Source of the DNA: a virus
Length of the DNA: 43,609 nucleotides
Virus genome (UHGV): UHGV-0384350
Reading direction: 5' to 3' (one strand)
Shown: positions 4,181-42,024 of the stretch, piece by piece
How positions within the stretch are numbered: the first letter of the stretch is position 1
How the letters are laid out: each line of letters opens with the position of its first letter
Made by a program: the position numbers and the translations under genes
Notes under the pieces: model-generated
What the model was told of the DNA's origin: nothing
The model's input: only the letters and a program-made list of their open reading frames with translations
Database searches by the model: none

Positions 4181-4195
4181 GTTGCGACGTCGCAC
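4181..4195. repeat. Palindromic motif copy 1: GTTGCGACGTCGCAC, in the integrase 5' leader just upstream of its RBS
   Basis: It is one of five dispersed copies of the TGCGACGTCGCA-centred palindrome, and the exact reverse complement of the 15-mer at 42010-42024. Confidence 0.6.
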
Positions 4196-4343
4196 ATTTT
4201 TTGGTATAAAAAATACACCTGTACAGGTGTAAGGAGGTATGGTACAATGTAGGTGTCTAAGCTATATTGTATCAGACCTCCGTGGCCTGTACAGAATTTA
4301 TCTAAAAGCCGTTCCTGTTGGCGCAGGGGCGGTTTTTGCGTTA

Positions 4344-5615
4344 TTAAGCAGACTGTTCCTGTTTTAAAATTTCAAGAGTTTCATTATATTCTTTAGCCAC
4401 TGGAATTCGTGTGAATTTGACTGTATTATTAAAATTTTCTTTAACTACCTTTTCTATATCATCCAAAGATACTTTAAAAAATTCTTTTCTTAAATTTACT
4501 CGATTTACACTTTGTTTTTCAAAAGCTTGATGTAAAGCTGTTTCAAGAGCAGGGGCATCGTCCGAGAATATCATGGCGTGTACATCAAATTCAAAGGGGA
4601 CAGAAGCACTTCCAAGTTCTTTTATACGATCCATAGGCTCTAGGCGACGTGTCATTCCTATTTTATATACATCCTGACCAAAAGAGCCAAGATTAGAAAT
4701 AATATAGACATAACCTGCACGAGCATTGGCCTCACGTTCCAGAACGGTTGCTTTGTCAGCTTCTAATTGTTTTAACTTATCATTTAATTCTTTGATTTTA
4801 TCGATGTATAATTGTTTTTCCACATCATCTTGGGTTTTTTGCATATACTGTATAAGACGATTGATTTCATTGGAACATTGGGTCTGGTCTTTTTCGAGTT
4901 TGGCCTTTTGACGTTCTATTTCTCTTCGAACCTTCTCTTCCTCTATCATTTGCTCTTTGATAGCCTTTTGCTGTTCGCGTTCCTGCTCTTTTTTTAATTC
5001 ATATGTGTAAACAAGATTCAGTTCATCTAATTTATATTGTAGGAGTTTCTGATTCAGTTGTACATTATCAACGTCAAATAATTTATTGAGAGTTTCAAAG
5101 GATTTTGTTATTTTGTTTCTTGCAGAATCAATGGTTTTAATGGAAAGATTTAATAAAACATTATCGCATTCAGCATTAAAGCAGCGCAGTATCTGTTTGG
5201 TATTGGCATTTAACATTTTTTTAGGAGAATTTCCGTATGTCTTTATAAAATTGGAATTTTTGATATAATTTTGCTCCTCCAATTTTAGAACAGCTAAATT
5301 ATTTTTGCATTCTTCAGATGAAATCCCATCATAATCAGTAAAACAATAATGCTGGCACAAAACATCACCTTCTAAGACATTGATTGCATCACATAGATTA
5401 TTGTAGTCTGTTTTTTTATTATCAATTTCCTTTTCAAGATTAGTGATTTTATTATTTAAGGAATCGATATCCCCATATTTTTTTTCCAGTTTATTATTTT
5501 CAATCATTTGTAATGTGAGCAATACTATTCCTACAATAATAGAAATAATAGAGGGCCAAAACATAAATAGAATACAAATAAACCATGTTTGAAGATACCA
5601 CTTTCTTTTTTTCAT
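4344..5615 (-). CDS. Membrane-anchored coiled-coil protein with a C-terminal T5orf172/MUG113 (GIY-YIG superfamily)-like domain (DUF4041-type architecture)
   Basis: The N-terminus is a transmembrane segment, followed by a long charged coiled-coil region. The C-terminal motifs are GYVYIISN...YKIGMTRR...R..ELG. The gene sits between int and immA, a typical cargo slot. An AGAGG RBS precedes the ATG at 5615. Confidence 0.55.
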   Translation of the reverse strand: MKKRKWYLQTWFICILFMFWPSIISIIVGIVLLTLQMIENNKLEKKYGDIDSLNNKITNLEKEIDNKKTDYNNLCDAINVLEGDVLCQHYCFTDYDGISSEECKNNLAVLKLEEQNYIKNSNFIKTYGNSPKKMLNANTKQILRCFNAECDNVLLNLSIKTIDSARNKITKSFETLNKLFDVDNVQLNQKLLQYKLDELNLVYTYELKKEQEREQQKAIKEQMIEEEKVRREIERQKAKLEKDQTQCSNEINRLIQYMQKTQDDVEKQLYIDKIKELNDKLKQLEADKATVLEREANARAGYVYIISNLGSFGQDVYKIGMTRRLEPMDRIKELGSASVPFEFDVHAMIFSDDAPALETALHQAFEKQSVNRVNLRKEFFKVSLDDIEKVVKENFNNTVKFTRIPVAKEYNETLEILKQEQSA

Positions 5616-5657
5616 ACCACATACCTCTTTTGCTTTTATTTATTAAAACGCCATTGG

Positions 5658-6107
5658 CTATTTTAATCTCAATTCAATCAATTCTTTTTGATAACCCAAT
5701 ACACGTGCTGCCTGTTCGATCGTATAGTCCTGATATCTGAAATATTCATATAGAACTTCATCGGAAATTAAAAATTCAACGGCAAATTTGTTGGCTTCCT
5801 GCTCTTTACGCGAATTAAGAAAGAGAGTTTTATGCTTTATGAAATAGCAGTTTTCACGAGGGTGAAGAATTGCATGACCTAATTCATGCGCCATGACAAA
5901 TAAGCGCTCATTTCCTTCAAGATTTTCATTTATCCAGATACATTTATTACGCTTTAGATACATATAGCATCCTGATCGCGTGCCGATATCACCAATTGCA
6001 ACTTCAATTCCGAGTGCTTCAGCTAAAGTAAAAGGATCGTTTGTCTGATATTTTTTTATGTAATAAGCAACTTTCTTTTTAATCGTGTTATTCAAGGCTG
6101 GACTCAC
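5658..6107 (-). CDS. immA: ImmA/IrrE-family zinc metallopeptidase (DUF955; anti-repressor protease partner of the CI-like repressor)
   Basis: It has an HEXXH motif (HELGH). It lies immediately downstream of, and translationally coupled to, the XRE repressor, and has a GTG start at 6107. Confidence 0.85.
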   Translation of the reverse strand: MSPALNNTIKKKVAYYIKKYQTNDPFTLAEALGIEVAIGDIGTRSGCYMYLKRNKCIWINENLEGNERLFVMAHELGHAILHPRENCYFIKHKTLFLNSRKEQEANKFAVEFLISDEVLYEYFRYQDYTIEQAARVLGYQKELIELRLK

Positions 6108-6533
6108 CTACTTTTTATTTTTGTTGCCATATTTTACTTTGTTCTTTACTTTTAATCTATGTAACATAAGATCCACTTGGCCTAAAAAGAGTTCGATATC
6201 ATCATCAGGTATATCTTCCCCATCATACGCAGCAGGCCCTAAATCTTTATTAAGTAATTTTTCTCTTAGCGAATCAAGATCCTTTTTTATATCTCTTTCA
6301 TCTCTGGCGGTTAACATAGGGGGCTTTTCTTTTATCATATCATTATTTCCAGTTGTTAGATAGTCTAATGTTACGCCAAAATAGTCAGCTATCTTTTGCA
6401 GCTTATCATTTTTAGGTTTACTTCGCCCACTTTTCCAATCAGAGAAAGTAGATTTTGTAATTCCGGTTGCTTTTACAACGTCAGAATCTTTAACACCTTT
6501 TTCATTTCGTAACTTGCAATAAATTTCGTACAT
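6108..6533 (-). CDS. XRE-family HTH transcriptional repressor (CI-like lysogeny repressor)
   Basis: The N-terminal HTH is ATGITKSTFSDWKSGRSKP. An AAGGAG RBS precedes the ATG at 6533, so the ORF-track start at 6581 is probably too far upstream. It is divergent from the cro-like gene. Confidence 0.85.
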   Translation of the reverse strand: MYEIYCKLRNEKGVKDSDVVKATGITKSTFSDWKSGRSKPKNDKLQKIADYFGVTLDYLTTGNNDMIKEKPPMLTARDERDIKKDLDSLREKLLNKDLGPAAYDGEDIPDDDIELFLGQVDLMLHRLKVKNKVKYGNKNKK

Positions 6534-6549
6534 AATGAACTCCTTAAAA

Positions 6550-6713
6550 GTTTGAAAATCCGTACAAAAAACTATTGACAAGTTCTGAAATCCGTCTTAT
6601 AATACAAATACAAAGTTCGGAAATCAAAACAGCCAAGTGTTGTTTGTTATTTTATGTCTGGTAAATGTATTATAACTGATTTCCGAACTAAAATCAATAG
6701 AAAAGTTCGGAAA
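6550..6713. promoter_or_regulatory. Lysis/lysogeny switch region with divergent sigma70-like promoters and repeated operator half-sites
   Basis: The plus-strand promoter has a TTGACA at 6575-6580, a 17-nt spacer and a TATAAT at 6598-6603. The minus-strand promoter has a TTGATT at 6697-6692 and a TATAAT at 6674-6669. Operator-like repeats AGTTCGGAAAT occur at 6614-6624 and 6703-6713, with the inverse ATTTCCGAACT at 6679-6689, and a related TGAAA(A)TCCGT unit appears twice at 6553-6594. Confidence 0.6.
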
Positions 6714-6723
6714 GGAGAAAAAT

Positions 6724-6924
6724 ATGTATGAAAAATATGTTACATTACGAGATAAAAGAAATGTGACAGATTACAGAGTATCAATAGATACTGGAATTAC
6801 GAAGTCTACTTTTTCTGATTGGAAGAGTGGTCGAAGTAATCCAAAACTGGATAAACTTCTTATCCTCGCCAAGTATTTTGATGTTCCGGTGGAGTATTTC
6901 GCAGAGACTGAGGACGGGAGGTGA
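6724..6924 (+). CDS. Cro-like XRE-family HTH regulator
   Basis: The 66-aa protein has the HTH TGITKSTFSDWKSGRSNPK, nearly identical to the recognition helix of the divergent repressor. An RBS GGAGAAAAATATG precedes it. Confidence 0.75.
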   Translation: MYEKYVTLRDKRNVTDYRVSIDTGITKSTFSDWKSGRSNPKLDKLLILAKYFDVPVEYFAETEDGR

Positions 6925-16105: not shown

Positions 16106-16178
<73 letters not shown>

Positions 16179-16224: not shown

Positions 16225-16292
16225 GACATCCTTGAGAGAGGGTGTCTTTTTGTTATGTATACATTGACATTAAAGAACATATGTTCTATACT
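16225..16292 (+). promoter_or_regulatory. Terminator-like hairpin followed by a consensus sigma70 promoter (TTGACA-17-TATACT) whose spacer holds the perfect 14-bp palindrome AGAACATATGTTCT
   Basis: The -35 is at 16264-16269, the -10 at 16287-16292 and the palindrome at 16274-16287. A second extended -10 (TGGTATAAT) lies near 16368-16376. Confidence 0.5.
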
Positions 16293-16409: not shown

Positions 16410-17330
16410 ATGATTATATATTTTTCCAAAATCAATTTAGAATCTACAGAGCTTCTTGAAATGTATAAGAAAGAAGAGATGTTCGATACTATGAGAAAAT
16501 GTATTTTGTCTTTTCTTGAAAATGGAACAGAATATGAAACTGAAGGAAGCTTTAAATCTGATGATGGAGAAGTACATTTTACTAAGACAAAATATCGTTT
16601 ATCGATAGGGTTGAAAGATGATAGTTATGTGTCTGGCGTAATATATAAATCAGCTACGTTATATTATAAACGAATTAATGCTGCGACAGAAGAGGTAGAG
16701 TCCCATTCAATTCCAACGATTGAAGATATTAGATTCTATTTTGATGTAAATAGAGAAATTATTGGATTTCATACAAGAAGTAGGTTTGGTTATCAGGAGT
16801 TTAATAGGGCATTTTCTGGAATAATCAATATGTGTATGGAAAAAAATAATTCACCTCTTAGATTTTCAATATCGCTTTATAACGAGGGGATGGAAATTAA
16901 TGAAATTGAGCGAGAATTAAGAAATATAAAGAATATTAAAAGATTGGAGTTTAATTTTAGATTACCAAATCCGGCTGATGGAAATATGCTGGAGCAGTTA
17001 AATGCTGGATTGACAAATACGGCAGAACTAATGGAAGAAGCAAATGCGAATGCTATGAGTGTGATTTTTGATTCAAATGGTACCATTGGTTTAAATATTG
17101 ATTCTGGGGAAATTAGAGAAAATATTGAGAGAGTAGGTCACTTGTCAAAAGGAATTACGGATAAGGATGCTACTAAAAATGGATATGTTCGTGTTATAGC
17201 CACTGGTAAAGACGGTAAAAAATATACTACAGAAGAGCAGAAACCGATAAAAAGAGAAACTATTGGTGAAACGGCAGAAGAGTTCTTTTTGGCATGCAGA
17301 GATACTATTTTGAATATCTTTTCAAAGTAA
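16410..17330 (+). CDS. Hypothetical cytoplasmic protein (first gene of the AT-rich two-gene cassette); no recognisable family
   Basis: An RBS GGAGAGG precedes the ATG at 16410 (the ORF track starts it at 16368). Its composition is strongly AT-rich compared with the flanks. Confidence 0.55.
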   Translation: MIIYFSKINLESTELLEMYKKEEMFDTMRKCILSFLENGTEYETEGSFKSDDGEVHFTKTKYRLSIGLKDDSYVSGVIYKSATLYYKRINAATEEVESHSIPTIEDIRFYFDVNREIIGFHTRSRFGYQEFNRAFSGIINMCMEKNNSPLRFSISLYNEGMEINEIERELRNIKNIKRLEFNFRLPNPADGNMLEQLNAGLTNTAELMEEANANAMSVIFDSNGTIGLNIDSGEIRENIERVGHLSKGITDKDATKNGYVRVIATGKDGKKYTTEEQKPIKRETIGETAEEFFLACRDTILNIFSK

Positions 17331-20122: not shown

Positions 20123-20361
20123 ATAAAGAAGAGAAGAAGGATATTCCATATGGATATGAACGGATTACATACTCCCGGTGCGGGGACAGCGAGGCATTGG
20201 AGATTCTTCGGCCTGCTTCTGATAATGCGGGGCAGGAATCCAGGATACTGTCTCCAGATATAACGGTGAGCCTTGAAACAAAAAGTGGTTTATCCGCTTC
20301 GGAAATAGCGGACAGATTGAAACAGATATTAGCCGAACAGGCTAATGGAGGGAGAAAATAA
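20119..20361 (+). CDS. Hypothetical protein
   Basis: It is a short ORF between terL and the portal gene. Confidence 0.3.
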   Translation: MNKEEKKDIPYGYERITYSRCGDSEALEILRPASDNAGQESRILSPDITVSLETKSGLSASEIADRLKQILAEQANGGRK

Positions 20362-20363
20362 TT

Positions 20364-21815
20364 ATGTCCAAGAGAAGAAACACCCGCCGTACACGGGCAG
20401 ACACAACACAGGCATCCACAGTTACGATGGATGCCTTTTCTAATCCTGCGGCCCGGATTGGATTCGGTACCATGGATCTTTTGCAGGCGACAGAATATCC
20501 CCTGACCCGTATGACCCAGAACTACCAGCTCCTAACCAGTCTGTACCGGGATAACTGGATTGTTCAGAACATCGTAGCTACAATCCCCAATGATATGATC
20601 CGAAAATGGTATGAGATCAGATCGGGTATCGCTCCGGAATATATCGACCAGATGGCCCGCTTAGAACGGACCACCCAGCTGCGAAAGAAATTGCTGACAG
20701 GCTTGTGCTGGGGGAGGCTGTATGGTGGTGCAGTTGGAGTGATTCTTATCAGGGGACAAAATGATATGTCCCAGCCTCTGGATTTGGACAGCATAATGCC
20801 CGGGAGCTTCCTGGGATTGCAGATTCTGGACCGGTGGAGTGGTGTATATCCGGAAAGTGATGTGGTAACAGATCCGTCCGATCCTGATTTTGGACTGCCG
20901 GATTATTATATTATCCGGGATGAGACTACAGGCCAGACGGCTGTGCGTGTGCATCACAGCAGGGTGATCCGGTTCATTGGGCGGGAGCTGCCGTGGCTGG
21001 AACAGGTGGCTGAACAGTATTGGGGAGAGTCGGAGCTGGAGGCGATTTACAGCGAGGTTGTCAAGCGGGACAATGTATCCGGTAATATTGCAGCGCTGAC
21101 TTTCCGGGCAAATGTCAACTATCTCGAAGCGGATGGACTGGATCAGCTGCTGGGGACGGCAAATACAGAGATGCAGCGCAGGTTCTGGAACCTGATGCAG
21201 GCCCAGGCAATCATGGAAAGCAACTTCGGAACCCGCATCATCAACAAGGGCGACGCCATGCACAATGTCCAGTATACGTTTACCGGCCTTGCTGATGTGT
21301 ATGACAGAGTGATGATGGATGTGGCAGGTGCAGCCAGAACACCGGTCACGAAGCTCTTCGGGCGCTCGCCTGCTGGGATGAATGCTACTGGCGAATCTGA
21401 TATGCGTAATTATTATGATTACATAGACGGCCTGCGGGAAACAGATTTCCGGGCTATCATTGAGAGACTACTGCCGATTATGGCATTATCGGCCTGGGGA
21501 CAGATACCGGATGATTTGGAGATTGATTTTCCACCCATGCAGACCCCAGATGCCAAGGAAACTGCGGAGATTGCAGAACGTAAAACGAATGCAATTCTGG
21601 CGGTATACCAAAATGATCTGATCGATTCTGCTACTGCACAGCAGGAACTCCAGACACTGACCGAAGAAACCGGAATGTTTGGAAAAATCACGGACGAAAG
21701 CATCGAGGCGGGCAGAGGTCAGACTTACAGCAGTTCCAGAGCGATGCAGGATCCTCTGATGGGCTTAGAGCTTCCACGGGAACCAGCATCAGGCAATGAG
21801 GGGGATTTTGAATGA
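20364..21815 (+). CDS. Portal protein
   Basis: It is 483 aa and sits directly after the terminase and before the MuF-like gene. Confidence 0.75.
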   Translation: MSKRRNTRRTRADTTQASTVTMDAFSNPAARIGFGTMDLLQATEYPLTRMTQNYQLLTSLYRDNWIVQNIVATIPNDMIRKWYEIRSGIAPEYIDQMARLERTTQLRKKLLTGLCWGRLYGGAVGVILIRGQNDMSQPLDLDSIMPGSFLGLQILDRWSGVYPESDVVTDPSDPDFGLPDYYIIRDETTGQTAVRVHHSRVIRFIGRELPWLEQVAEQYWGESELEAIYSEVVKRDNVSGNIAALTFRANVNYLEADGLDQLLGTANTEMQRRFWNLMQAQAIMESNFGTRIINKGDAMHNVQYTFTGLADVYDRVMMDVAGAARTPVTKLFGRSPAGMNATGESDMRNYYDYIDGLRETDFRAIIERLLPIMALSAWGQIPDDLEIDFPPMQTPDAKETAEIAERKTNAILAVYQNDLIDSATAQQELQTLTEETGMFGKITDESIEAGRGQTYSSSRAMQDPLMGLELPREPASGNEGDFE

Positions 21816-23311
21816 CACGGCAGATGAAGATCCTTCTACCAGATCGGGCAGATGTAACGGCTTATATGCGTATGCTGTTTTTGCGGACAGAGCAGGAAAT
21901 CATAAATGTGATCAACCGTAAGCGGTCGGTGGGCCATGTAGATTATGCTGAGGTAGCTGCTCTGGAACGTGTCCAGAAGATTCTGCAAAGTATGATAGAT
22001 CAGTCCTGGGCCTATGTCCCGACGATGATAGAAAAGATATTCTACCATTCGGATAAGGATGCTTCGGGTTACTCGAATGCCCGGAAGATGACTGAGACAT
22101 TCTCAGCGCCCCGGATTGCTATTATACAGCAGTTGACTGATAATCTTCTGGGTGAGCTTACAGAGGCCTCAGAAACAGCTTATGAGAGCGTACGGAAGGT
22201 CTACACGATTGCGAGACTGGAGGCTGATCCCTTCCGGGAAACAGCACTTAAAAAGGTATTGCGCAAGGAGGCAGCAGGAACTCCATGGATCAACAGCAGT
22301 CAGGCCATGGTACAGGAGATGCAGAATAAGGGGATTACCGCTTTTGTGGATAAGGCGGGGCGAAAGTGGTCTTTGCAGAGCTATGGGAACATGGCTGTCC
22401 GCACAACAGCCCGTCAGGCCCAGGTGGCAGCCCTTCTTACGGCTGACGATTACGATCTGTGGCAGATCGTGAAGGTTGGAAGCACCTGCAAGGTATGCGC
22501 GGCTCTGGAGGGAAGAGTGTACAGTAAAAGCGGAATGAACCCGGACTATCCTCCGTTGTCTCTGGCTTTCGGGAAGGTAGATCCGGATGGGGCGGATGAT
22601 CTGACGAATACCTACCTGAATATTCATCCTAACTGCCTTCATTCATTGGTTAAATATACAACGATAGGAAAGACAGAAAAGCAGATCCAGAAGGATAAGG
22701 ATTTTTCCAATCCTGAAAAGAATCCTATTGACCGGGATCCCCGGACGAAGAAGCAGATCAAGGCTTATCGGGAGAAGGAGCGGAACCGGCAGAGGCTTTT
22801 GCGGGATATGAGGCAGCATAAGGAATATAGGGCTGTTTTAGGGGAGGAAGTACCGAAAGATTTTGCAAAGTTCCAGAAAATGAAGTATACTGAAGGTGAA
22901 AAAATTGAGGTACTTAGAAAAAAAGTTGAAAATCTGGAAAAGTCCCGCAAATTCAAAGAAAAATTAAAAGATGGATCTATAAACATAGCTGTAAGAAATG
23001 TGAAACAGCAGGAACATATTCAGGGAACTAAAAAGTGGAGACAAAGGGTACGTTCTGATTTGGAAACCAAAGGAACAGCACCAGATATGTTCTATAAAAG
23101 TGTGGATGTTCAGAAGCTGGTGGATGAATATTCTGGGACAGGAGAATTTGAATTCCGTAAGAATCAGCAGTACCCTATTGAATACATCAGCGCAAAAGAA
23201 CCGATTGGAAGGTACTTTAACCTTGGAAAAGGAAGATACGAAGAAACAAAGCGTTTTGCAATTCGTTATTCCAGCAAGGGCGTACACCTGCATCCGGTAA
23301 AGGAGGTTTGA
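21812..23311 (+). CDS. Head morphogenesis protein (Mu F / SPP1 gp7 family) with a ~200-aa Lys/Arg-rich C-terminal extension
   Basis: The central MuF motif is RKWSLQSYGNMAVRTTARQAQVAAL. The C-terminal extension ends ...YSSKGVHLHPVKEV. Confidence 0.8.
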   Translation: MTRQMKILLPDRADVTAYMRMLFLRTEQEIINVINRKRSVGHVDYAEVAALERVQKILQSMIDQSWAYVPTMIEKIFYHSDKDASGYSNARKMTETFSAPRIAIIQQLTDNLLGELTEASETAYESVRKVYTIARLEADPFRETALKKVLRKEAAGTPWINSSQAMVQEMQNKGITAFVDKAGRKWSLQSYGNMAVRTTARQAQVAALLTADDYDLWQIVKVGSTCKVCAALEGRVYSKSGMNPDYPPLSLAFGKVDPDGADDLTNTYLNIHPNCLHSLVKYTTIGKTEKQIQKDKDFSNPEKNPIDRDPRTKKQIKAYREKERNRQRLLRDMRQHKEYRAVLGEEVPKDFAKFQKMKYTEGEKIEVLRKKVENLEKSRKFKEKLKDGSINIAVRNVKQQEHIQGTKKWRQRVRSDLETKGTAPDMFYKSVDVQKLVDEYSGTGEFEFRKNQQYPIEYISAKEPIGRYFNLGKGRYEETKRFAIRYSSKGVHLHPVKEV

Positions 23312-23547: not shown

Positions 23548-23611
23548 TACAGCGGAGAGAGCTATAGTGTATACTTTGCTACAGAGTTAAGATAAGCAAA
23601 AATAATTGAGG

Positions 23612-23652: not shown

Positions 23653-23663
23653 CCATTTTTAGC

Positions 23664-23679: not shown

Positions 23680-23694
23680 AGGAAGGAGTACACA

Positions 23695-23871
23695 ATGAGT
23701 AGATTTCTAAACTGGCTGAAACGGTTCTTTTGCAGGGCGAATCCTGAATGTGAGCACCTGTATAGAAAGCACTGGTGCCGCCGCTATGGCCCTTATGGCG
23801 GGTATGTGAGGCGGTGTACGAAGTGCGGAAAGGAAACAGAGAGATGCTTGCATATTACGGATACACCATAA
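23695..23871 (+). CDS. Small Cys-rich zinc-ribbon protein
   Basis: An RBS GGAAGGAG precedes the ATG at 23695. The motifs are CRANPECEH ... CTKCGKETERC. Confidence 0.4.
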   Translation: MSRFLNWLKRFFCRANPECEHLYRKHWCRRYGPYGGYVRRCTKCGKETERCLHITDTP

Positions 23872-28379: not shown

Positions 28380-28828
28380 CTTTTACATTGGATCATATTG
28401 TAGACAGCCTTGCAGGAGTCCTTACTTCCAGATACTCAGCGTATCCGGTTTATGACAGTCCCAATCCCCAGGGGACAGAACCTCCATGCTTTTTTATTTT
28501 TTTCATGCCCTCTACCATAGAAGGGCAGGTGGGAGAACGGTTCCTGCGTGATCTGGGTGTGGACATTGTGTTTGTGCAGGAACGTAACATTGTTAATGCC
28601 AACGCAGAGATTCTCCAGATTGCGGATTATCTGGATACGGTACTGGAGCTGTTCCCTTATTCAGATGGGGGCAGTGAAACAGCATGGGTACGAACCTATG
28701 AGAGGCAGTGGCAGACGGAAGATGGGGAGCTGCATTATCAGTTCCATATCAGGGAACGGGTGCGGCTGCCGGAGGAAGGAAATCCAATGCAGGAAATGGA
28801 GGAACGTTATGGCATCAAAGGCAAATAA
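28376..28828 (+). CDS. Hypothetical tail completion protein
   Basis: It lies directly before the sheath region. Confidence 0.35.
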   Translation: MTFTLDHIVDSLAGVLTSRYSAYPVYDSPNPQGTEPPCFFIFFMPSTIEGQVGERFLRDLGVDIVFVQERNIVNANAEILQIADYLDTVLELFPYSDGGSETAWVRTYERQWQTEDGELHYQFHIRERVRLPEEGNPMQEMEERYGIKGK

Positions 28829-29021
28829 GAGTACAGAGTCTAAGTCTACTGTTGCGACGCCGCACAAAAGAGACGGACAAAAATACTCCACCAGTAAACT
28901 GTTGAAAAGCAAGCATTTGGCCGGGTATCAGCGGGATTTTGCCAGGGTGATCCTGACAGAACCAGAATATACTATCGAAGAGGCAAGAAAGCTTTTAGAT
29001 GAGAGATTAAAGGACAAATAA
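28809..29021 (+). CDS. Hypothetical small Lys-rich protein
   Basis: An RBS GGAGG lies 5 nt before the ATG at 28809. It carries palindrome copy 3 at codons 15-19. Confidence 0.35.
   Translation: MASKANKSTESKSTVATPHKRDGQKYSTSKLLKSKHLAGYQRDFARVILTEPEYTIEEARKLLDERLKDK
28851..28865. repeat. Palindromic motif copy 3 (degenerate): GTTGCGACGCCGCAC, inside a coding sequence
   Basis: It has two mismatches relative to the perfect 16-mer. Confidence 0.4.
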
Positions 29022-29051
29022 AAAGCCGCCCATTTAGGACGGCCTTTAGGA

Positions 29052-29477
29052 TTATGCCCGGAGCTTTGCAAGGAGGGCTTCCTGGAGAGTTTGAGAAAAG
29101 TTGATGCCCTGTTCCAAGGCGGCTTTGTTTAACCATGCTGGAATGGATAGGGTCTTTTTTACAGATTTCTCAAAGTGTTCCTTTGCGTAAGCTTCCACAT
29201 CGACAGAAACCATATTAACAAATGATTCGCAGGGAGGAGAATCCGGATCTAATTCTTTTGCGATAGCCAGGGGATCAATATCTGACAGTCCGGATGGTTC
29301 GGGAAGGGGTTCATTATCTCTTTTGCAAGTATGAATATAACCAGCGAGACAGTCGATAGCCATTCCCATGGCTTCCTGGAGCGTATCGCCCTGGGTGGCA
29401 AGCCAGTTAAGATCTGGGAAAATGACAGAATAGCCATTTTCTTCTTTATAAAAACAAGCTGGGTACACGGATAACAT
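29052..29477 (-). CDS. hicB: HicB-family antitoxin (type II toxin-antitoxin)
   Basis: It carries the motif YSVIFPDLNWLATQGDTLQEAMGMAIDCL. It lies immediately downstream of hicA on the minus strand. Confidence 0.8.
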   Translation of the reverse strand: MLSVYPACFYKEENGYSVIFPDLNWLATQGDTLQEAMGMAIDCLAGYIHTCKRDNEPLPEPSGLSDIDPLAIAKELDPDSPPCESFVNMVSVDVEAYAKEHFEKSVKKTLSIPAWLNKAALEQGINFSQTLQEALLAKLRA

Positions 29478-29518
29478 ATAATATACCTCCTAAAATTATT
29501 TGAGAAGGCAGACTGGGG

Positions 29519-29710
29519 CTATTTGAGCCCCGCCTGCTTCCTGATGGAATTCTCAGTCTTTTTGGTTAAGTCTTTACCCTGATGGAACGGGATTGTAACT
29601 TTTCCGGACTTTATCGGATGTACATAGTTCCGGTGAGAGCCCTCTTGGCTTTTGAATATCCACCCATCTGCAAGGATTAGTTTTTCCATTTCTCTTGGTT
29701 TTAGTGGCAT
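29519..29710 (-). CDS. hicA: HicA-family toxin (mRNA interferase)
   Basis: The sequence MPLKPREMEKLILADGWIFKSQEGSHRNYVHP matches HicA, and the protein is 63 aa. Confidence 0.85.
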   Translation of the reverse strand: MPLKPREMEKLILADGWIFKSQEGSHRNYVHPIKSGKVTIPFHQGKDLTKKTENSIRKQAGLK

Positions 29711-29734
29711 TTGTTATACCTCCCTTGCACTATT

Positions 29735-29763
29735 ATAATAGCATATAATACGTATTATGTCAA
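29735..29763 (-). promoter_or_regulatory. hicAB promoter (minus strand: TTGACA-17-TATTAT) with the 14-bp palindrome ATAATACGTATTAT in the spacer
   Basis: The -35 is at 29763-29758, the -10 at 29740-29735 and the palindrome at 29745-29758. It is followed by a GGGAGG RBS and the ATG at 29710. Confidence 0.5.
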
Positions 29764-29816
29764 TACGTATAAAACAATACATAAAATATTAAAAAATAAG
29801 AAAGCGAGGTCAAAAA

Positions 29817-32249: not shown

Positions 32250-34289
32250 TTGATGGGGAAAATAAATGAAACACTTACATTGACAGATCAGTTTTCTTCC
32301 TCTTTCCATACATTCATCAATCTGGGGGAGCAGGCTCTTTCAAGCCTGATTTCTGTCAACAATGGCATAACAGATCTGGCCTCACAGTCTGCCCGTGAAT
32401 CGGAGAAAACCAGACAGTCCATTGATGGAGTAACACAGAGTATCAATCAGATGTCCGATGCACTCCAGTATATTTCTGTACAGGGAATGAATGAGATCAA
32501 ACAGACGATCCAGCAGATTGATGTAAATCAGCGGAATCATACAGAAGAAACCAAACGGACAGGCAGAGCAGCAGGTGATCTTCTTCGGATATTCCGCCAG
32601 ATCGCAGTAGCAACTGGTGCGGTAAGTTTGGTAAGATCCTTCTTAGGGGTTGCTGATCAGCAGACACAGATTACAGCCCGCCTGAATTTAATGAATGATG
32701 GGCTTCAGTCCACAGCCGAATTGCAGGATATGATCTATGTGTCGGCGCAGCGTACCCGGTCTGCATATGATGCTACGGCACAGGTGGTAGCTGGCCTTGG
32801 ACAGCGTGCCGGTAAGGCATTTTCCTCCAGTGTAGAGATTGTCCAGTTTGCGGAAAACTTAAATAAGCAGTTTAAGATTGCAGGTGCATCGCAGCAGGAG
32901 ATTTCCTCAGCATCCCTGCAGCTGACCCAGGCAATGGGTGCTGGTGTGCTCCGCGGTGAGGAATTGAATGCAATCTTTGAGGCAGCGCCCAATATCATCC
33001 AAACGATTGCGGATTACCTGGGAGAGGACATAGGTAAAATCCGGGATATGGCATCAGAGGGACAGATTACGGCAGAAGTAGTAAAAAATGCTATGCTGAA
33101 AGCGACGGATGAGATAGATGCACAATTTCAAGAGATGCCTATGACACTGGCAGAAGCTTTTACCATGGGAAAAAACGCAATTCAAAAAAACTTGCAGGAT
33201 AGCTTTTATGGATGGAGTGAATTCTTGAATTCAGACGAAGGTCAGCAGGCTATTATGCAGGCAATTACCTTGTTCACAGTTCTTGCACAGATAGGAGTTG
33301 GGACGTTATCTGCGATTGGTCAGGGCGCTTTGTGGGTATCCAATAATCTGGATTTTATTTTACCTATATTGGCGGCAATAGGGGTGGCACTTGTCATATT
33401 GAATGGACAAGCGATTTTAGCAGGCATGGCCAATGTAGGAAGTGCACTGGCATCAGCTGCAGCCTGGGCGGCAGCAAACTGGCAGATATTACTGCTGATA
33501 GCTGTTTTTTCAGCAGCCCTGATTGCCGCCCAACAATTTGGATTCGGAATGCAGGAAGTCGGGAGCTTTGTTGGACAAATTTTAGGATTGCTGTATGTAG
33601 TCGGCTACAATGTCTTTGCATCTCTCTGGAATGTGATTGCTGCATTTGCGGAGTTCTTTGCGAATGTTTGGAATGATCCTCTGGGAGCGACCGCCCGGTT
33701 ATTTTTTGATGTATTTGATACAATTTTGGGAATTGTCGAAACAACAGCCGGAGCCATTGATGCACTTTTGGGAACGGATATGGCCAGTGTTGTATCCGGA
33801 TTCCGCGGCAAGATGTCCGGCTGGGTTGATGATACATTCGGAGAAAATGCAGTCCAGATCAAACGTATGTCAGAACTCGATGTGGTTGCGACGTCGCAAC
33901 AATGGGGGGATGTTGGTGCAAGTCTGGGGGCTAAGCTGGACAACATGGATCTCAGCCTGGAGTCATTGACGGATAATCTGGGAGGCCTGAATGGTTTTGA
34001 CGCATCATCTATCCCAACTGTGGACAACCTTGGAGACATTGGCAAGGTTGGGAAAGTCGGCAAGATCGAAGATGATGTAAAGCTTTCCGATGAAGATATC
34101 AAGATCTACAGGGATTTGGCAGAACGCCGCTATATGAATAACATAGAGCTTCAGACTATGGCGCCGCAGATCCATGTGTCCATTCCGGAAAGCGCTGCCA
34201 AGAATCTGACTGCCAGTGATATTGCGGATAAATTGAAAGCGATCCTGATCGAACAGGCTGCTGCCGGAACAGCAGTATCGCACGGATAG
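32250..34289 (+). CDS. Tail tape measure protein
   Basis: It is 679 aa with helical repeats and a hydrophobic central segment. It carries palindrome copy 4. Confidence 0.8.
   Translation: MMGKINETLTLTDQFSSSFHTFINLGEQALSSLISVNNGITDLASQSARESEKTRQSIDGVTQSINQMSDALQYISVQGMNEIKQTIQQIDVNQRNHTEETKRTGRAAGDLLRIFRQIAVATGAVSLVRSFLGVADQQTQITARLNLMNDGLQSTAELQDMIYVSAQRTRSAYDATAQVVAGLGQRAGKAFSSSVEIVQFAENLNKQFKIAGASQQEISSASLQLTQAMGAGVLRGEELNAIFEAAPNIIQTIADYLGEDIGKIRDMASEGQITAEVVKNAMLKATDEIDAQFQEMPMTLAEAFTMGKNAIQKNLQDSFYGWSEFLNSDEGQQAIMQAITLFTVLAQIGVGTLSAIGQGALWVSNNLDFILPILAAIGVALVILNGQAILAGMANVGSALASAAAWAAANWQILLLIAVFSAALIAAQQFGFGMQEVGSFVGQILGLLYVVGYNVFASLWNVIAAFAEFFANVWNDPLGATARLFFDVFDTILGIVETTAGAIDALLGTDMASVVSGFRGKMSGWVDDTFGENAVQIKRMSELDVVATSQQWGDVGASLGAKLDNMDLSLESLTDNLGGLNGFDASSIPTVDNLGDIGKVGKVGKIEDDVKLSDEDIKIYRDLAERRYMNNIELQTMAPQIHVSIPESAAKNLTASDIADKLKAILIEQAAAGTAVSHG
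33885..33900. repeat. Palindromic motif copy 4: perfect 16-mer GTTGCGACGTCGCAAC, inside the tape measure coding sequence (encodes VATSQQ)
   Basis: It is identical to copy 2. Confidence 0.6.
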
Positions 34290-38429: not shown

Positions 38430-39725
38430 ATGGGAGTATATAAAAAAGCGGTCATCACAGAAGCAGGAGAAGCATTGGCAGCCAGGGCGGTGTCTGGTGA
38501 GGTTACAATACAGTTTTCCCATTCAGGAACATCATCATATGCGTATTCCGAAGGTACAAACTTAAAAAAACTGACAGAACTCCAGGATGTGAAACAGACG
38601 GTGATTCCATCTAACGTGCAAATTGCAAATGATACACTGATCAGTATCCGCTCGATGTTTGATAATAGTGAGATCACACAGGAATATCTGATACAGAATG
38701 TGGGTATCTATGCATCGGATGGGGAAACGGAGATATTATTTGCAGTCTGCCAGGCTGCTACTCCTGATCAGATGCCCGCTTTCAATGGAGTTGCCCCCTC
38801 GTCTTTTATTTATAATGTTCAGATCAGCATAGCTCAGGCGGAGCAGCTGTCTATTTCAATCAGTACAGCAGGTACAGCTACCGTACAGGACGTGCTTGAT
38901 CTGGAGAAAAAAATGGAAGAGAAGAAACTGGATTCTTCCGGAGGAGATGCATCTGATACAGTGGCATCAGTAGAAGAACCAAATTCGGAGGAAGAAAAGT
39001 ATCCAGATATTGGTAGCAAGGGAAGTATGAAAAACATTCTGGGAAATTTATACCGATGGGTTAAGACTTTGAAGGCAGATAAGGTTGATTCCGCAGGCGG
39101 TGACACAGCAGAAACGGTGATTTCGGCGTTTGAAGCATCTTCTGAGAACTTTCCGGTGCCGGCCGTCAAGGAAAAGGCAAAGACCAGATGGGGAAAAGTA
39201 AAGAAGTTTTGCGAAGATTTTAAGGCATGGATGACTGGCGTATGCCTGTTGGGGCATATTGTCAATAACTGTGTCACAAACAACCCTAACCTGCCGCTTT
39301 CGGCGGCTCAGGGTAAGGCCTTGATGGACCTTTATACTGTGCTCAATACCAACACGTCAAAAATTGGTCACACTCATGATGAGAGATACTACACGGAGGA
39401 AGAAATCGAAAACAAGTTATATTGGAAAGCAATAGGCGAAGAAATATCCTTATACCCTGAGTCTGTTAATACCGATGTCTATTATCAGAACGATAAACTT
39501 AAATCTGCGAAAGAACTTCTGATTTATCATAGTAATTTCGGATGTATATACATCCCCAATATCAATCAATATGTAGTACAAACACAGATCCGATCAGAAT
39601 ATTTCTGGGTTACTGTATCTGTATCATTTCAAAAAGACGAAGGCCGAATCGCATATAAAATTATCGCTAAAGGGAGTTCGGAAAATTTTTCATCTAATAG
39701 GATTGTGGGTGTGGCTTATAGATAA
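38430..39725 (+). CDS. Tail fiber protein (XkdV position)
   Basis: It has a collar-like N-terminus and a GHTHDERYY HxH motif typical of fiber proteins. The 3' third is AT-rich. Confidence 0.65.
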   Translation: MGVYKKAVITEAGEALAARAVSGEVTIQFSHSGTSSYAYSEGTNLKKLTELQDVKQTVIPSNVQIANDTLISIRSMFDNSEITQEYLIQNVGIYASDGETEILFAVCQAATPDQMPAFNGVAPSSFIYNVQISIAQAEQLSISISTAGTATVQDVLDLEKKMEEKKLDSSGGDASDTVASVEEPNSEEEKYPDIGSKGSMKNILGNLYRWVKTLKADKVDSAGGDTAETVISAFEASSENFPVPAVKEKAKTRWGKVKKFCEDFKAWMTGVCLLGHIVNNCVTNNPNLPLSAAQGKALMDLYTVLNTNTSKIGHTHDERYYTEEEIENKLYWKAIGEEISLYPESVNTDVYYQNDKLKSAKELLIYHSNFGCIYIPNINQYVVQTQIRSEYFWVTVSVSFQKDEGRIAYKIIAKGSSENFSSNRIVGVAYR

Positions 39726-39776
39726 TAGCAGCTTAAACGGGCATCCCTTTATTTTTTGCTTGTTTTTGATTACATA

Positions 39777-40055
39777 TTATTCAGTGGCTATTATCTTAGT
39801 AGTACTGTCATTTATAAGCAGTTTCAATTTCATATCAGTGTCCAAGTAGAGCACCGCACCACCAGTTTTATGGCAATCTAAAAATATTCCTGGTCTGGAG
39901 GATGGGTTAATATCCGTACGCGCCCGTATAGTGATCGCAGAATTACCTGATCCAGCACCGAAATTACCTGATTCAAGGAACTGCATGGCACTAAAAACAT
40001 TGGATTCATCTTTTTTAGAGGCCTTGGTATTGCGCACATTAAAGCAGTCTACCAT
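39777..40055 (-). CDS. Hypothetical reverse-strand ORF, possibly an alternative fiber-tip segment
   Basis: It is convergent with the fiber gene and AT-rich, and it sits directly next to a truncated tyrosine recombinase. Confidence 0.3.
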   Translation of the reverse strand: MVDCFNVRNTKASKKDESNVFSAMQFLESGNFGAGSGNSAITIRARTDINPSSRPGIFLDCHKTGGAVLYLDTDMKLKLLINDSTTKIIATE

Positions 40056-40108
40056 ATATGCATCCCCCTACCTTAGAATTAAGGTATCAATATAAGGAGG
40101 ATGCGTGT

Positions 40109-40906
40109 ATGGATGAGATCAAATTAAAAGATGATCTGATGGCAAGACTGGCCCGTGAGCTGGAACGGCCTGTTCTGCAGGTGATTGATGGAGCATTATC
40201 GGCAGTGTTGCGGGATTATGATGTTAGTAAGAGGAAAACGGGACTGAGCACAGAGGTGGTAAGCTGGCCGGAATATGATATTTTTATGTCCCGCATGATC
40301 TTCGGTGGCTATTCCAAGAGTACCATTCGGCAGTATGGGACATTTTTAAGAGAGCTGTTGGTTTATGTCGGTAAGCCTGTGCAGGAGATTACAGGGGATG
40401 ATATTGTATCCTGTCTTAATGCCTATGCAGAGGCCCGGCAGATCAGCGGCAGTACCAAGGACCATAAGCGCCTGATCTGTAGCAGCTTTTTCACGTTCCT
40501 GCATGACCGGGGCTATATAGGCCGTAATCCTATGGCTACTATAGACCCGATTAAGTATGTAGCTGAGGTGCGGGAGGCGCTGAACAGTCGGGAAGTGGAG
40601 AAGATGCGGATTGCCTGCGGGGAAAATATCCGGGATAATTTGGTACTGGAATTGTTTTTGGCTACCGGCTGCCGCGTTTCGGAGGTCGTTGGGATGCGGG
40701 TGGAAGAGATTGATCTGGAGAGTGGATCTGTGAAGGTGCTGGGAAAAGGCCAGAAGTTTAGGATATCGTTATCTTTTGGAGAAATGCCTGTAGTTAAAAG
40801 TTCGATATTTCTATCAGCCTCATTTTGCTTGGTATTACACACAATAAAAACGAAAATCCAGGTCCCTTTGGGGCCTTTTATTATACATAAAAATACAAAA
40901 TCATAG
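40109..40906 (+). pseudogene. Truncated tyrosine recombinase (XerC/XerD-like); N-terminal SAM-like domain and first catalytic Arg are present, but the C-terminal H-x-x-R/Y region is missing
   Basis: The conserved region ELFLATGCRVSEVVGMRVEEIDLESGSVKVLGKGQK is followed by unrelated AT-rich sequence and a stop. A full-length enzyme would have about 80-100 more residues. An RBS AGGAGG precedes the ATG at 40109. Confidence 0.55.
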
Positions 40907-40922
40907 AAAGGAAGGATGCCAA

Positions 40923-41210
40923 ATGGAAAAAATCAAAATCCATGATACTGAATATGAAATCATCAGTATTATGCCGGCAGCCACAAACGTGCTGCGGATT
41001 GAATTTGCAGACGCAGTGCCGGAAAAATGGGGAGATATCACCACATATACAGTTGGTGGGATGGAAGCCGGCTGCATCAGTGGATATGACACACTGTATC
41101 GTGCAGATTGTCAGATGATCTACCTGAGTAATGATGGCAGTGTGTATGAGCCGCCAGAAGAGCAGGAGCTGATCAATAGGCCGATGCTGATCGAGGAGGC
41201 GGAAGGATAA
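40923..41210 (+). CDS. Hypothetical protein (XkdW position)
   Basis: It has an RBS AAGGAAGGATG. Confidence 0.3.
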   Translation: MEKIKIHDTEYEIISIMPAATNVLRIEFADAVPEKWGDITTYTVGGMEAGCISGYDTLYRADCQMIYLSNDGSVYEPPEEQELINRPMLIEEAEG

Positions 41211-41500
41211 TGGAATACATACAGACGATCCTTGCGATTTGCGGAGGAATAAGTATTATAGGAGGAGCCGGTGCGGTTATCGTTAAGGTAATCAAGCCGG
41301 CTTTTCATCTGACAGCACGAGTCCAGAAACTGGAAGAGCATTCGGACAAGGATTACAAGCGTCTGGTTGCTCTGGAAAATATGCAGAAACAGCAGTCCAA
41401 GAGTCTTGCAGCTCTGCTCAATCATCAGATCACCGGTAATGGGATAGATACGATGAAGCAGATCCGGGACGAGCTGTTGGAATCTATTATAGACCAGTAG
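41210..41500 (+). CDS. Small membrane protein (XhlA-like position; N-terminal TM plus coiled coil)
   Basis: There is a TM helix at residues about 5-27. It lies next to the holin candidate. Confidence 0.4.
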   Translation: MEYIQTILAICGGISIIGGAGAVIVKVIKPAFHLTARVQKLEEHSDKDYKRLVALENMQKQQSKSLAALLNHQITGNGIDTMKQIRDELLESIIDQ

Positions 41501-41517
41501 AAGGGAGGTGAGGAACT

Positions 41518-41748
41518 ATGCTTAAGAACTGTGTATTTAGGGCTGATGTGGATACCATCCAGTGGGTCAAGGCCGCAGGTATCCGTGCCATTAAGACCAT
41601 GGCGCAGACATTTGTCGCCACCATCGGCTCAGCAGCGGTCATGGGTGAGGTCAACTGGCCTATGGTAGCCAGTGCATCCGCGCTGTCCGGTATCCTGTCG
41701 GTGGCAACATCCATTGCAGGCCTTCCGGAACTGCCAGCCAAGACCTGA
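41518..41748 (+). CDS. Putative holin
   Basis: It is 76 aa with two hydrophobic helices and a charged C-terminus. It has an RBS GGAGGTGAGG and lies in the late/lysis region. Confidence 0.5.
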   Translation: MLKNCVFRADVDTIQWVKAAGIRAIKTMAQTFVATIGSAAVMGEVNWPMVASASALSGILSVATSIAGLPELPAKT

Positions 41749-41838
41749 GAGGAGGTGATCCATAGGTCTCCCGTCCGGCAGGGTCAGAGCCGGAGCAACT
41801 ATTACATATTTTCAACAATGAAAGAGAGGACAAAGATT

Positions 41839-42006
41839 ATGGCAAACGCAACAGGTAAGAATCAGGACAAGAGAACAGCAGAGCAGAGAAAGAACGACGC
41901 AGCACAGAAGGCAAGACCCAAGGGTGCACAGGATACCACTTTTGTAACCACCGGCCCTGCAACCGGCAAGGAGGACGAGAGAGCGGTAGGCACGGAAGAT
42001 AAGTAA
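41839..42006 (+). CDS. Hypothetical small basic protein
   Basis: The start is uncertain (41755, 41818 or 41839). Confidence 0.25.
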   Translation: MANATGKNQDKRTAEQRKNDAAQKARPKGAQDTTFVTTGPATGKEDERAVGTEDK

Positions 42007-42009
42007 GCT

Positions 42010-42024
42010 GTGCGACGTCGCAAC
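42010..42024. repeat. Palindromic motif copy 5: GTGCGACGTCGCAAC, 4 nt after a stop codon and before a terminator
   Basis: It is the exact reverse complement of copy 1 at 4181-4195. Confidence 0.6.

Follow-up and report, generated by a model that had tools for sequence, protein, structure and literature searches.

A typed palindrome at gene junctions of Lachnospiraceae temperate phages and a small zinc-ribbon ORF linked to its CG type

The virus genome UHGV-0384350 (43,609 nucleotides, the whole of which was analysed and is called the window below) is the ~43.6-kb circular genome of a temperate myovirus, and carries five copies of a short palindrome with CG at its centre. The palindrome belongs to a family with members in hundreds of Lachnospiraceae phage and prophage contigs. 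Its positions and nucleotides are conserved between relatives, its central bases tend to be the same throughout a phage, homology between phages breaks at its edges, and the CG type is linked to a 58-aa zinc-ribbon open reading frame (ORF). The reading favoured here, tentatively and with somewhat less than even confidence, is that the CG element is a cis-acting hairpin or operator read by the zinc-ribbon protein, more probably as RNA, and that it is also a crossover point. Loci and contigs compared with the window are labelled with L-numbers (L001 etc.).

Five copies in UHGV-0384350

The core TGCGACGTCGCA is found exactly at 4183, 23666, 33887 and 42011, and a single-mismatch form, TGCGACGCCGCA, at 28853. 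These five matches with at most one mismatch compare with 0.05 expected from dinucleotide-preserving shuffles, none of which attained five, so the five-copy family proposed in the initial annotation is real. The motif is the only 10- or 12-nt palindrome that occurs more than once within the window. As first described, copies 2 and 4 are the identical, perfect 16-mer GTTGCGACGTCGCAAC, while copies 1 and 5 are exact reverse complements across 15 nt; read along the local gene direction, both are TG-TGCGACGTCGCA-AC. Since relatives align without break across its end and start, the window is taken to be circular, and copies 5 and 1 therefore bracket ~5.8 kb, again in agreement with the earlier description. 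The copies and the ORF behind the second of them are as follows (CDS, coding sequence; RBS, ribosome-binding site).

Copy 1, CG type: 4181–4196, minus strand; TGTGCGACGTCGCAAC as read on the strand of the integrase gene (int), directly before ACAAAATAGGAGG and the int ATG (4162).
Copy 2, perfect 16-mer: 23664–23679, plus strand; after a terminator hairpin and TTTTTTGTACCCATTTTTAGC, 5 nt before AGGAAGGAG and 18 nt before the ATG of the zinc-ribbon ORF (23695).
Zinc-ribbon ORF, 58 aa, CHCC: 23695–23871, plus strand; behind copy 2, overlapping the start of the DUF2213 head gene.
Copy 3, degenerate, GTTGCGACGCCGCACA: 28851–28866, plus strand; in frame as V-A-T-P-H, codons 15–19 of a 70-aa phrog_966 CDS (28809–29021).
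Copy 4, perfect 16-mer: 33885–33900, plus strand; in frame as V-A-T-S-Q in the tape measure gene (PF20155).
Copy 5, TGTGCGACGTCGCAAC: 42009–42024, plus strand; 3 nt after the TAA (42004–42006) of the last small late gene.

Copy 1 sits 18 nt past a terminator-like hairpin and U-run (4231–4214). Copy 5 lies 8 nt before a 10-bp intrinsic terminator (42032–42055), which is followed by the RBS and ATG (42077) of a gene that spans the ends of the window. These local contexts are as initially described, except that copy 5 is 3 nt from the stop codon, not 4. None of the five copies was matched in a search with Rfam 15, even at E ≤ 10; over the window the search placed only a tRNA above its gathering score, and weak sub-threshold matches included a 3′ fragment of transfer-messenger RNA (tmRNA).

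Distribution and conservation

Members of the family follow the consensus TTG[C/T]GA-(2–3 nt)-TC[G/A]CAA, usually with the sense-strand extension ...CAAC-AG-RAAGG. The 16-mer was found in more than 118 IMG/VR stretches, mostly with 44–48% GC, and in at least 120 stretches of species-representative genomes. Among the 120 genome matches listed, 56 are in records whose titles name Lachnospiraceae or one of its genera (Acetatifactor, Roseburia, Lachnoclostridium, Merdimonas, Muricomes, Faecalicatena, Parablautia, Butyrivibrio, [Clostridium] symbiosum), ~19 more are in unspecified Clostridia, and the remainder are mostly high-GC chance matches. Nearly all of the low-GC genome loci have protein similarity to motif-bearing viral loci, and the high-GC loci do not. 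Six prophage contigs encode the identical integrase, and in five of them the adjoining host DNA, ~10 kb of what is essentially one region, has zero copies. The virus-like character of the low-GC matches and the copy-free host flank place the element in phages and prophages and not in the host chromosome at large, and speak against the generic host repeat that the initial annotation had allowed for. No literature was found on the motif or on palindromes at Lachnospiraceae prophage junctions, full-text matches to the motif being unrelated papers on CpG oligonucleotides.

For the same reasons it is extremely improbable that the element is an iterated palindrome of the host genome, and the related idea of a restriction-modification or methylation target at GACGTC fares no better. 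The motif does include the AatII-type site GACGTC, four of the five such sites in the window fall inside it, and variants exist in which the central CpG has changed by a single step (to TG or CA). However, the number of GACGTC sites in the window (five, with 3.7 expected) is at expectation, phages normally avoid restriction sites rather than conserve them, and a sister type, TTGCGATATCGCAA, whose GATATC centre lacks GACGTC, fills the same positions in other phages. This last observation tells against the modification or nuclease target suggested earlier.

Conservation of position is seen in relatives of the DUF2213 head gene, which were collected from 70 IMG/VR loci with 51–100% protein identity. 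Nearly all of them have a palindrome at the spot of copy 2, between a terminator and an RBS, in otherwise divergent intergenic DNA, and a family member is retained there down to ~51–57% identity. The forms found at this position are TGCGACGTCGCA; TGCGATATCGCA, the commonest in relatives at 53–60% identity; TGTGATATCACA; TGTGACATCACA; forms with the single-step centres TG and CA; and 13-nt cores with the centres CCG, CGG and CCA. Subsets of these loci retain copies 3 (~+5 kb) and 4 (~+10 kb) as well. Across 45 distinct sites, T9, G10, G12, A13, T16, C17, C19 and A20 (numbering of the first aligned sequence) are invariant; one pair flips from C-G to U-A with no half-changed intermediates, and the outer two “pairs” are often unpaired. 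While the core is perfectly palindromic, its conserved 3′ flank, AAC-AG-RAAGG, is invariably on the sense strand.

Placement at gene boundaries and predicted structure

A set of 198 non-redundant contexts of the exact core was classified by position. In 59 the core is directly upstream of a Shine-Dalgarno (SD) sequence and start codon, ending 15–21 nt before the start in 45 of them, and at RBS-adjacent copies the gap between motif and SD is 2–5 nt. Another 55 contexts lie deep within long ORFs. The other 84 are mixed, and include a recurrent arrangement of stop codon, motif, terminator and RBS like that of copy 5, seen in ~12 other loci. Directly downstream is the small zinc-ribbon ORF in ~25 of 61 contexts; other genes in this place are at least seven different tyrosine integrases, four endolysins, terS, and cro-like and xis-like genes. 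Copies of the sister type with TA at the centre likewise precede integrases, lysins, terS and cro-like genes.

The predicted fold is a hairpin of 6–8 bp (−7 to −11 kcal/mol; −5 to −11 kcal/mol over all predicted stems) with loops of 4–5 nt, often nested in a predicted helix between the SD and U-rich or CCUCCU sequence upstream. Such SD-sequestering helices are predicted at copies 1 and 2 and at many relatives, though not at all of them. No sigma-70-like promoter was found between copy 1 and the int SD or downstream of copies 2 and 5 in a promoter scan, which was negative or at background level around copies 1, 2 and 5. The motif was also considered as a sigma-70 promoter element in its own right. 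This was rejected: there is no −10 sequence between motif and SD in the window, and TTGCGA is at a −35 position in only a few loci (L247/L296).

The context of copy 1 and the window's cI-like and cro-like genes can be set out as follows.

Tyrosine integrase gene, int: 2804–4162, minus strand; ATG at 4162.
Rest of the int leader: 4197–4343, minus strand; sigma-70-like promoter TGTACA-16-TACAAT (4293–4266), anti-SD-like CCUCCUU, and hairpin ACACCTGTACAGGTGT with U-run (4231–4214).
cI-like helix-turn-helix (HTH) gene: 6108–6533.
cro-like HTH gene: 6724–6924.

In the predicted fold of the leader, CCUCCU pairs with the int SD around the motif hairpin. The ~180-nt leader, motif included, is conserved in the six prophage contigs that encode an identical integrase (L309–L314, 9790–9960), and judging by its sequence it looks like an attenuator or translational-control leader of the integrase. 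The slot between the M78 peptidase gene and int (4344–5615, minus strand, in the window; 8500–9870 in L309–L314) is a variable cargo site: in the prophages with identical integrase it holds Mrr_cat/NA-iREase, Zn-ribbon plus PH-glycine-zipper, SNIPE(DUF4041)-T5orf172 or choline-binding proteins, which are candidate defence genes. The DUF4041/T5orf172 protein near copy 1, named in the initial annotation as a possible partner of the motif, was dropped as a candidate for this reason, since the same leader stands beside Mrr_cat, Zn-ribbon/PH or choline-binding genes in these prophages.

Copies within coding sequences

Of the 55 copies deep within coding sequences, 44 are read as V-A-T-S-Q and lie in acidic linkers, with Q and then E/D as the usual next residues. 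The codons behind VATSQ are GTTGCGACGTCGCAA in 471 cases and near-variants of it in 12; synonymous codons are never used. Selection for the peptide itself is rejected by this complete lack of synonymous encodings. Together with the orthologous positions held among relatives with 55–100% protein identity, it bears out the upkeep of the element at the nucleotide level.

Many of the deep copies are at domain junctions of one mosaic early-protein family, phrog_15077. Its members have a conserved N-terminal domain of ~130 aa (YIGYRLKQIRD...KSTVSRFI) and one to three VATSQQ-encoding palindromes at domain junctions (copies were seen in L003, L004, L019, L023, L030, L042, L045, L076, L194, L217, L276 and L304), and their C-terminal modules vary, among them a Cys-rich domain, acidic tails and, in L045, an RNA polymerase alpha-CTD domain. 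The window has no homologue of this family, which was rejected as a candidate on that ground.

The two coding copies of the window can be followed in their orthologues. The phrog_966 gene with copy 3 precedes the tail sheath module. Its orthologues in L122 and L124 have the exact core, read as V-A-T-S-H in place of the window's V-A-T-P-H, and at the same codons TA-type phages have ATTGCGATATCGCAACAG, which encodes I-A-I-S-Q-Q; the amino acids thus change, and the DNA type is thereby kept. A hicA/hicB toxin-antitoxin pair (29015–29816, minus strand) is inserted just downstream, between the phrog_966 and sheath genes, relative to L122. A HicB operator was considered for copy 3 and rejected, as the copy is downstream of hicB and hicAB is itself an insertion. 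Copy 4 is kept in the close relatives L037, L119, L121, L131 and L176 in an alignment of homologous tape measure genes, the comparison proposed in the initial annotation. More distant tape measure homologues (45–60% identity) have LDVGATAAEWG or LDVAATSAEWA at these columns, with no indel. An ancestral LDVGATAAEW-like stretch has been replaced without an indel, so copy 4 arose by substitutions, and copies can therefore be created in place.

Central types within one phage

Counts of the central types depend on how the loci were chosen, and are given here for four selections.

Loci selected by the CG 16-mer (0.87 Mb): TGCGA-CG, 122; TGCGA-TA, 0; other, 1 CA.
Loci selected by the TA 14-mer (0.97 Mb): TGCGA-CG, 0; TGCGA-TA, 120; other, 15 TTGTGACGTCACAA, 1 CA, 1 CAG and 1 TGTGA-CT.
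Loci selected by the zinc-ribbon protein (size not summed): TGCGA-CG, 70; TGCGA-TA, 0; other, 3 CA and 1 TG.
Loci selected by DUF2213, and so unbiased as to type (size not summed): TGCGA-CG, 20; TGCGA-TA, 33; other family members.

The two types substitute for each other at orthologous sites, and the motif in the DUF2213 leader matches the type of its genome. CG- and TA-type phages have gene families in common, including int, amidase, cI-like, terL, sheath and tape measure genes. The window's int family goes with CG in the window and with TA in L486, and an integrase beginning MGQLRTRKRG goes with CG in L030 and TA in L440 and L481. Neither a purely structural hairpin nor simple descent predicts such homogeneity. 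From the concerted change of central bases over whole genomes we infer a type-specific, trans-acting reader.

A second element, TTGTGACGTCACAA, is found in a number of TA-type loci (L405, L422, L435, L439, L447, L451, L453–L455, L485, L496, L500 and L503). Mostly it forms a tandem with TTGCGATATCGCAA, the two being 1 nt apart and in either order, at the end of a gene with a terminator immediately following (e.g. L422, 1929–1958). Degenerate second elements, GTTGTGATATTACAAC and GTTATAATGTCACAAC, are at the same place in other loci, including the CG-type L098.

These results also bear on whether the element could be an RNA hairpin with a purely structural role and no dedicated factor. It would then be a stabiliser or insulator against RNase J-type 5′ decay or 3′ exonucleases, it would keep the SD context constant when modules are swapped, and the identity of its copies would come from the horizontal spread of cassettes. 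The location in intercistronic and untranslated regions by SDs and terminators fits this well, as do the stable predicted hairpin, which can be extended through the U-tract and purine-tract flanks, the variation in loop length and sequence with one compensated pair, and the movement of cassettes among phages. A stem under structural selection should drift, however, yet eight positions never vary among the 45 distinct sites, and pairing is not retained at the outer ones. Nor does a structural role account for type homogeneity, for the upkeep of type in coding sequences at the cost of amino-acid changes, or for the origin of the copy within the tape measure gene, and on balance it seems decidedly unlikely.

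A zinc-ribbon ORF linked to the CG type

Behind copy 2 is a member of a family of basic CHCC zinc-ribbon proteins of 42–58 aa with invariant C19, H21, Y23, K25, W27, R29, G35, Y37, R40, C41, C44 and K46. The ORF has no Pfam-A match at E ≤ 0.01 and no PHROG match, and only two homologues have been called in a set of 5.8 billion proteins, so that annotation largely misses the family.

Loci fetched by the zinc-ribbon protein alone include 31 unique contexts, and in 28 of these a TGCGA-NN-TCGCA core lies no more than 150 nt upstream (26 exact CG, one CA, one TG and none of the TA type). Conversely, the ORF is present in 20 of 112 loci selected by the CG motif and in none of 117 selected by the TA motif, and among the DUF2213 relatives it is confined to CG-type lineages. 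This link is the strongest lead to the trans-acting factor, and the sequence associations make the zinc-ribbon protein a candidate partner of the CG element.

The motif at mosaic junctions

When 195 contexts of the motif were compared all against all, 108 alignments ended on the right within 6 nt of the motif edge, compared with ~1 per nt elsewhere, and alignment starts pile up in mirror image at the other edge. Eighteen of 53 multi-member flank clusters are joined across the motif to two or more different partner flanks. Copy 2 illustrates both sides of this: L041, L066 and L096 are homologous to the window only from 23662 rightwards, and L001 aligns only over 23600–23681. Several loci have in common with the window only a ~230-bp cassette of terminator, motif and small ORF, and relative to TA-type relatives the zinc-ribbon cassette is inserted immediately 3′ of the motif. 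In the int leader, the boundary of the variable slot is ~170 nt upstream of the motif, not at it. As the only sequence common to otherwise unrelated modules, the element appears to be a junction at which recombination joins them. The recombination sites suggested in the initial annotation are thus borne out only in an evolutionary sense, the homology breakpoints being at the motif; the inversion between copies 1 and 5 that was also suggested finds no counterpart, in that no rearranged relative was seen, which is a weak test.

It is nevertheless quite improbable that the element is a dedicated recombination site. By analogy with Xer/pdif sites or integrons, it would be the core site of a recombinase or nuclease, with a central crossover and compatibility groups, through which modules are shuffled between co-infecting phages and prophages. 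Apart from the breaks at the motif edge and the multiple partners of flank clusters, the role of copy 2 as the left limit of homology in three loci and the right limit in one, the position of the inserted zinc-ribbon cassette, the many integrase genes that adjoin the motif, and a variable centre between constant arms, which recalls recombinase cores, would all suit such a site. The dimensions do not: with arms of 5–7 bp and a centre of 2–3 nt it is too short for the core of a tyrosine recombinase (6–8 bp overlap), a 3-nt centre misfits a serine recombinase, and the core does not match the integron GTTRRRY. The adjoining integrases are from different families with different att sites, the slot boundary in the int leader is away from the motif, and compatibility groups leave unexplained why all sites of a genome switch type jointly. 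Recombination through short homology at the sole conserved patch explains the breakpoints equally well, and the window has a PDDEXK exonuclease-type module.

Proposed mechanism

A scheme that would accommodate these results is as follows. A short palindrome capable of forming a hairpin would be placed in transcribed junctions of Lachnospiraceae temperate phages, in three kinds of position: before the SD of a first cistron (integrase, head operon, lysin, terS, cro-like), in the gap between stop codon and terminator, and in frame within coding sequences where intergenic room is lacking. A type-specific trans-acting factor would read the central bases. For the CG element this would be the 58-aa CHCC zinc-ribbon protein, bound more probably to the SD-abutting RNA hairpin than to duplex DNA, and its binding might co-ordinate translation or mRNA fate of int, the head genes, the tail-proximal gene and the zinc-ribbon gene itself. 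Recombination at the element would then follow from the fact that it is conserved. The initial annotation had listed a binding site for a phage regulator among its candidate roles, and this is the one favoured here. Four observations favour RNA over duplex: the conserved flank keeps to the sense strand, the distance to the SD is constant, loop length varies, and promoters are lacking.

Several observations weigh against this scheme. The link between the zinc-ribbon ORF and the CG type could be pure physical linkage, since the motif belongs to the leader of the zinc-ribbon gene itself and both travel as a cassette, and in most loci with a zinc-ribbon ORF just one copy is seen within ±10 kb. In TA-type phages the element persists with no detectable zinc-ribbon ORF, and for them another factor, possibly host-encoded, must be assumed. 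The types are not always kept apart: contig L128 mixes them, and TA phages often hold the second type TTGTGACGTCACAA in tandem. Covariation in the hairpin is thin, with one pair and probably two events, and the inner 5 bp do not vary at all; G-U intermediates were not observed, and the single-arm variants number only seven, none of them a wobble. A13 and T17 are invariant although they are unable to pair across a 2-nt loop, which fits duplex half-sites equally. Finally, most copies are downstream of strong terminators, and transcripts that carry them are only presumed.

Some of these points would suit an operator or roadblock in duplex DNA instead, at which a dimeric protein (a zinc ribbon like P2 Ogr, another phage protein or a host one) would insulate or silence the int, head and tail modules behind terminators, somewhat as stoperators do. 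The perfect dyad symmetry speaks for this, with the half-sites TTGYGA/TCRCAA invariant even at A13 and T17 and free of G-U intermediates, and type homogeneity resembles the specificity groups of stoperators and their repressors (PMC6550527, PMC9283540). The motif also overlaps the −35 or spacer of an extended −10 promoter, or a divergent switch region, in L016/L273, L247/L296 and L219. Spacing and placement tell against it: the half-sites are 2 or 3 nt apart at one orthologous site, the gaps of 2–5 nt between motif and SD in the window come without a sigma-70-like promoter, and conservation of the flank is asymmetric, being confined to the sense strand. The region between the cI-like and cro-like genes is free of copies, and the identical motif accompanies different cI-like genes. 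Operators in duplex DNA are therefore a rather unlikely explanation, and two more specific forms of it in the initial annotation are not upheld. A rigid operator for a dimeric HTH protein does not agree with 13-nt cores at the same spot, or with sites that abut SDs or sit in coding sequences and not at promoters; the repressor and Cro-like protein lose their place as candidate regulators because of the copy-free switch region and the changing cI-like partners.

If the RNA hairpin and zinc-ribbon scheme is extended to the family, the two parts could make up an undescribed control system, in which a CHCC zinc ribbon of 42–58 aa, nearly always overlooked by gene callers, is paired with a typed 16-nt hairpin or operator that heads the integrase, head and tail modules, the centre defines specificity groups, and the element channels modular recombination. 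This is speculative, and is put forward with low confidence.

Comparison with known systems

Mu Com is a very small zinc-binding phage protein that acts in translational control of selected late functions through an RNA operator upstream of mom. The arrangement at copy 2 is similar, with a small basic zinc-ribbon ORF beside a short hairpin just 5′ of an SD predicted to be sequestered. Unlike Com, however, the window's ORF has no sequence similarity to it and no Pfam match, and the site is present four to five times per genome, also in coding sequences and 3′ untranslated regions, is typed, and is common to many phages. Given the lack of a match to the Com family, the zinc-ribbon protein may work like Com while falling outside it.

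A small RNA-binding protein and a phage-specific RNA hairpin present more than once per genome, whose loop gives it identity, are also found in the lambda N/boxB system. The repeated short hairpin with a candidate small phage-encoded protein is reminiscent of nut sites, which, unlike the element, are upstream of the terminators that are overridden and are accompanied by boxA (not searched for here); copies 1 and 2 and those of most relatives are downstream of terminators, and only the class of copy 5 precedes one, by 5–25 nt. The candidate protein here is a zinc ribbon and not an arginine-rich peptide like N.

P2 Ogr and P4 Delta are small zinc-finger activators, with about four dyad-symmetric sites per myovirus genome heading the late operons. 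A small zinc protein and about four dyad-symmetric sites at the heads of operons are seen here too. Ogr sites, however, are near −55 of promoters with a −10 sequence, whereas the core here ends 15–21 nt before the start with the SD in between, where a promoter neither fits nor matches.

Short conserved elements at module borders include the T4-type PeSL cassettes, the boundary sequences of lambdoid phages and the pdif sites of Acinetobacter, and the motif resembles these in coinciding with mosaic breakpoints. They are promoter plus stem-loop units of 50–70 bp, or 28-bp Xer sites; the element is a typed palindrome of 14–20 bp that also occurs in frame in proteins. In contrast to the cores of tyrosine recombinases, with arms of 7–13 bp and an overlap of 6–8 bp, it has the arms TTGYGA/TCRCAA, a centre of 2–3 nt, and no conservation of flanks beyond 16–20 bp. 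Cyanobacterial HIP1 and enterobacterial REP/BIME are iterated palindromes that are very abundant throughout host genomes. Like them, the element is short, iterated and tolerated in coding sequences in preferred frames; unlike them, it was found only in phage- or prophage-like DNA among the loci and ~10-kb host flanks examined. A Chi-like site was rejected, as the half-sites alone are not enriched, and so was a ParB/parS-like site, there being no ParB domain in ~60 scanned window proteins and the centre being variable.

Stoperators, nut sites and Ogr dyads were central to working out genome-wide co-ordination in phages, and to our knowledge no dispersed, genome-specific cis sites have been described for the temperate phages of gut Lachnospiraceae, which are abundant and little studied. 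Cluster A stoperators (L5 gp71 type) are dispersed short sites near starts and stops that are homogeneous per genome and differ between specificity groups (PMC6550527, PMC9283540). The element shares with them the many dispersed copies in short intergenic regions and the single type per genome. It differs in that stoperators are asymmetric 13-mers bound by the immunity repressor and identical to its early-promoter operator, whereas the core here is palindromic, albeit with a 3′ flank conserved on the sense strand, and the cI-cro switch has no copy with one mismatch or fewer. For these phages the element is a simple sequence marker of a large group, which points to a tiny conserved gene overlooked by annotation and gives a testable handle on the joint control of int and the late modules. 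It is also a concrete, mappable site of module exchange, and so is relevant to a long-standing question, namely whether phage mosaics are joined at targeted or at random places. If the scheme proposed above is right, the central dinucleotide (CG, TA or others) would define specificity groups analogous to immunity groups, and an operator shared by unrelated modules would channel the modular recombination that builds mosaic gut phages.

Other features of the genome

A megablast of the late region against INPHARED phage records gave zero matches. Besides int and the HTH pair, genes annotated in the window are DUF4041/T5orf172, an ImmA-like M78 peptidase, an ArpU/Alt-like regulator, and a recombination and replication module with a PDDEXK exonuclease-type component. 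Further annotated genes are terminase, portal, DUF2213, major capsid, sheath, tube, tape measure, baseplate, fibre, holin and amidase. A homologue of minor capsid protein 2 (21812–23311) has an Ntox50 toxin domain at its C-terminus (residues 395–495).

The gene downstream of copy 5 is an ORF of ~900 aa across the window ends (42077–43609 and 1–1179), and is Pfam-negative over the part scanned (127–1179). In L119, L079, L121, L123 and L124 a 1.8-kb homologue of its distal part lies between terminase and portal, flanked by a 9-bp overlap of window 20355–20363, and it appears to be a gene that shifts position among phages.

A 42-nt inverted repeat (39322–39363 and 40013–40054, 71% complementary) connects the 3′ part of the tail-fibre gene (38430–39725) with the start of an ORF on the opposite strand (39777–40055). 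Adjoining it is a short Xer-like tyrosine recombinase gene (40058–40906), whose match covers only the first third of the catalytic domain. The region 39322–40906 looks like an invertible fibre-tip (host-range) switch, possibly decayed.

On the minus strand, 18 nt at 2667–2684 match the 3′ end of tmRNA (E = 0.008, far under the gathering score of the family), adjoining the terminator immediately downstream of int. In the prophage contigs int borders host Uma2/Ldh genes, and ssrA itself was not seen there. The stretch is likely an attP core that imitates the ssrA 3′ end. The tRNA gene is at 16106–16178, with an anticodon loop GUU (Asn), and is followed at 16275–16286 by one perfect GAACATATGTTC, the core of the Firmicutes LexA box (GAAC-N4-GTTC), upstream of an ORF at 16410–17330 close to the start of the late region.

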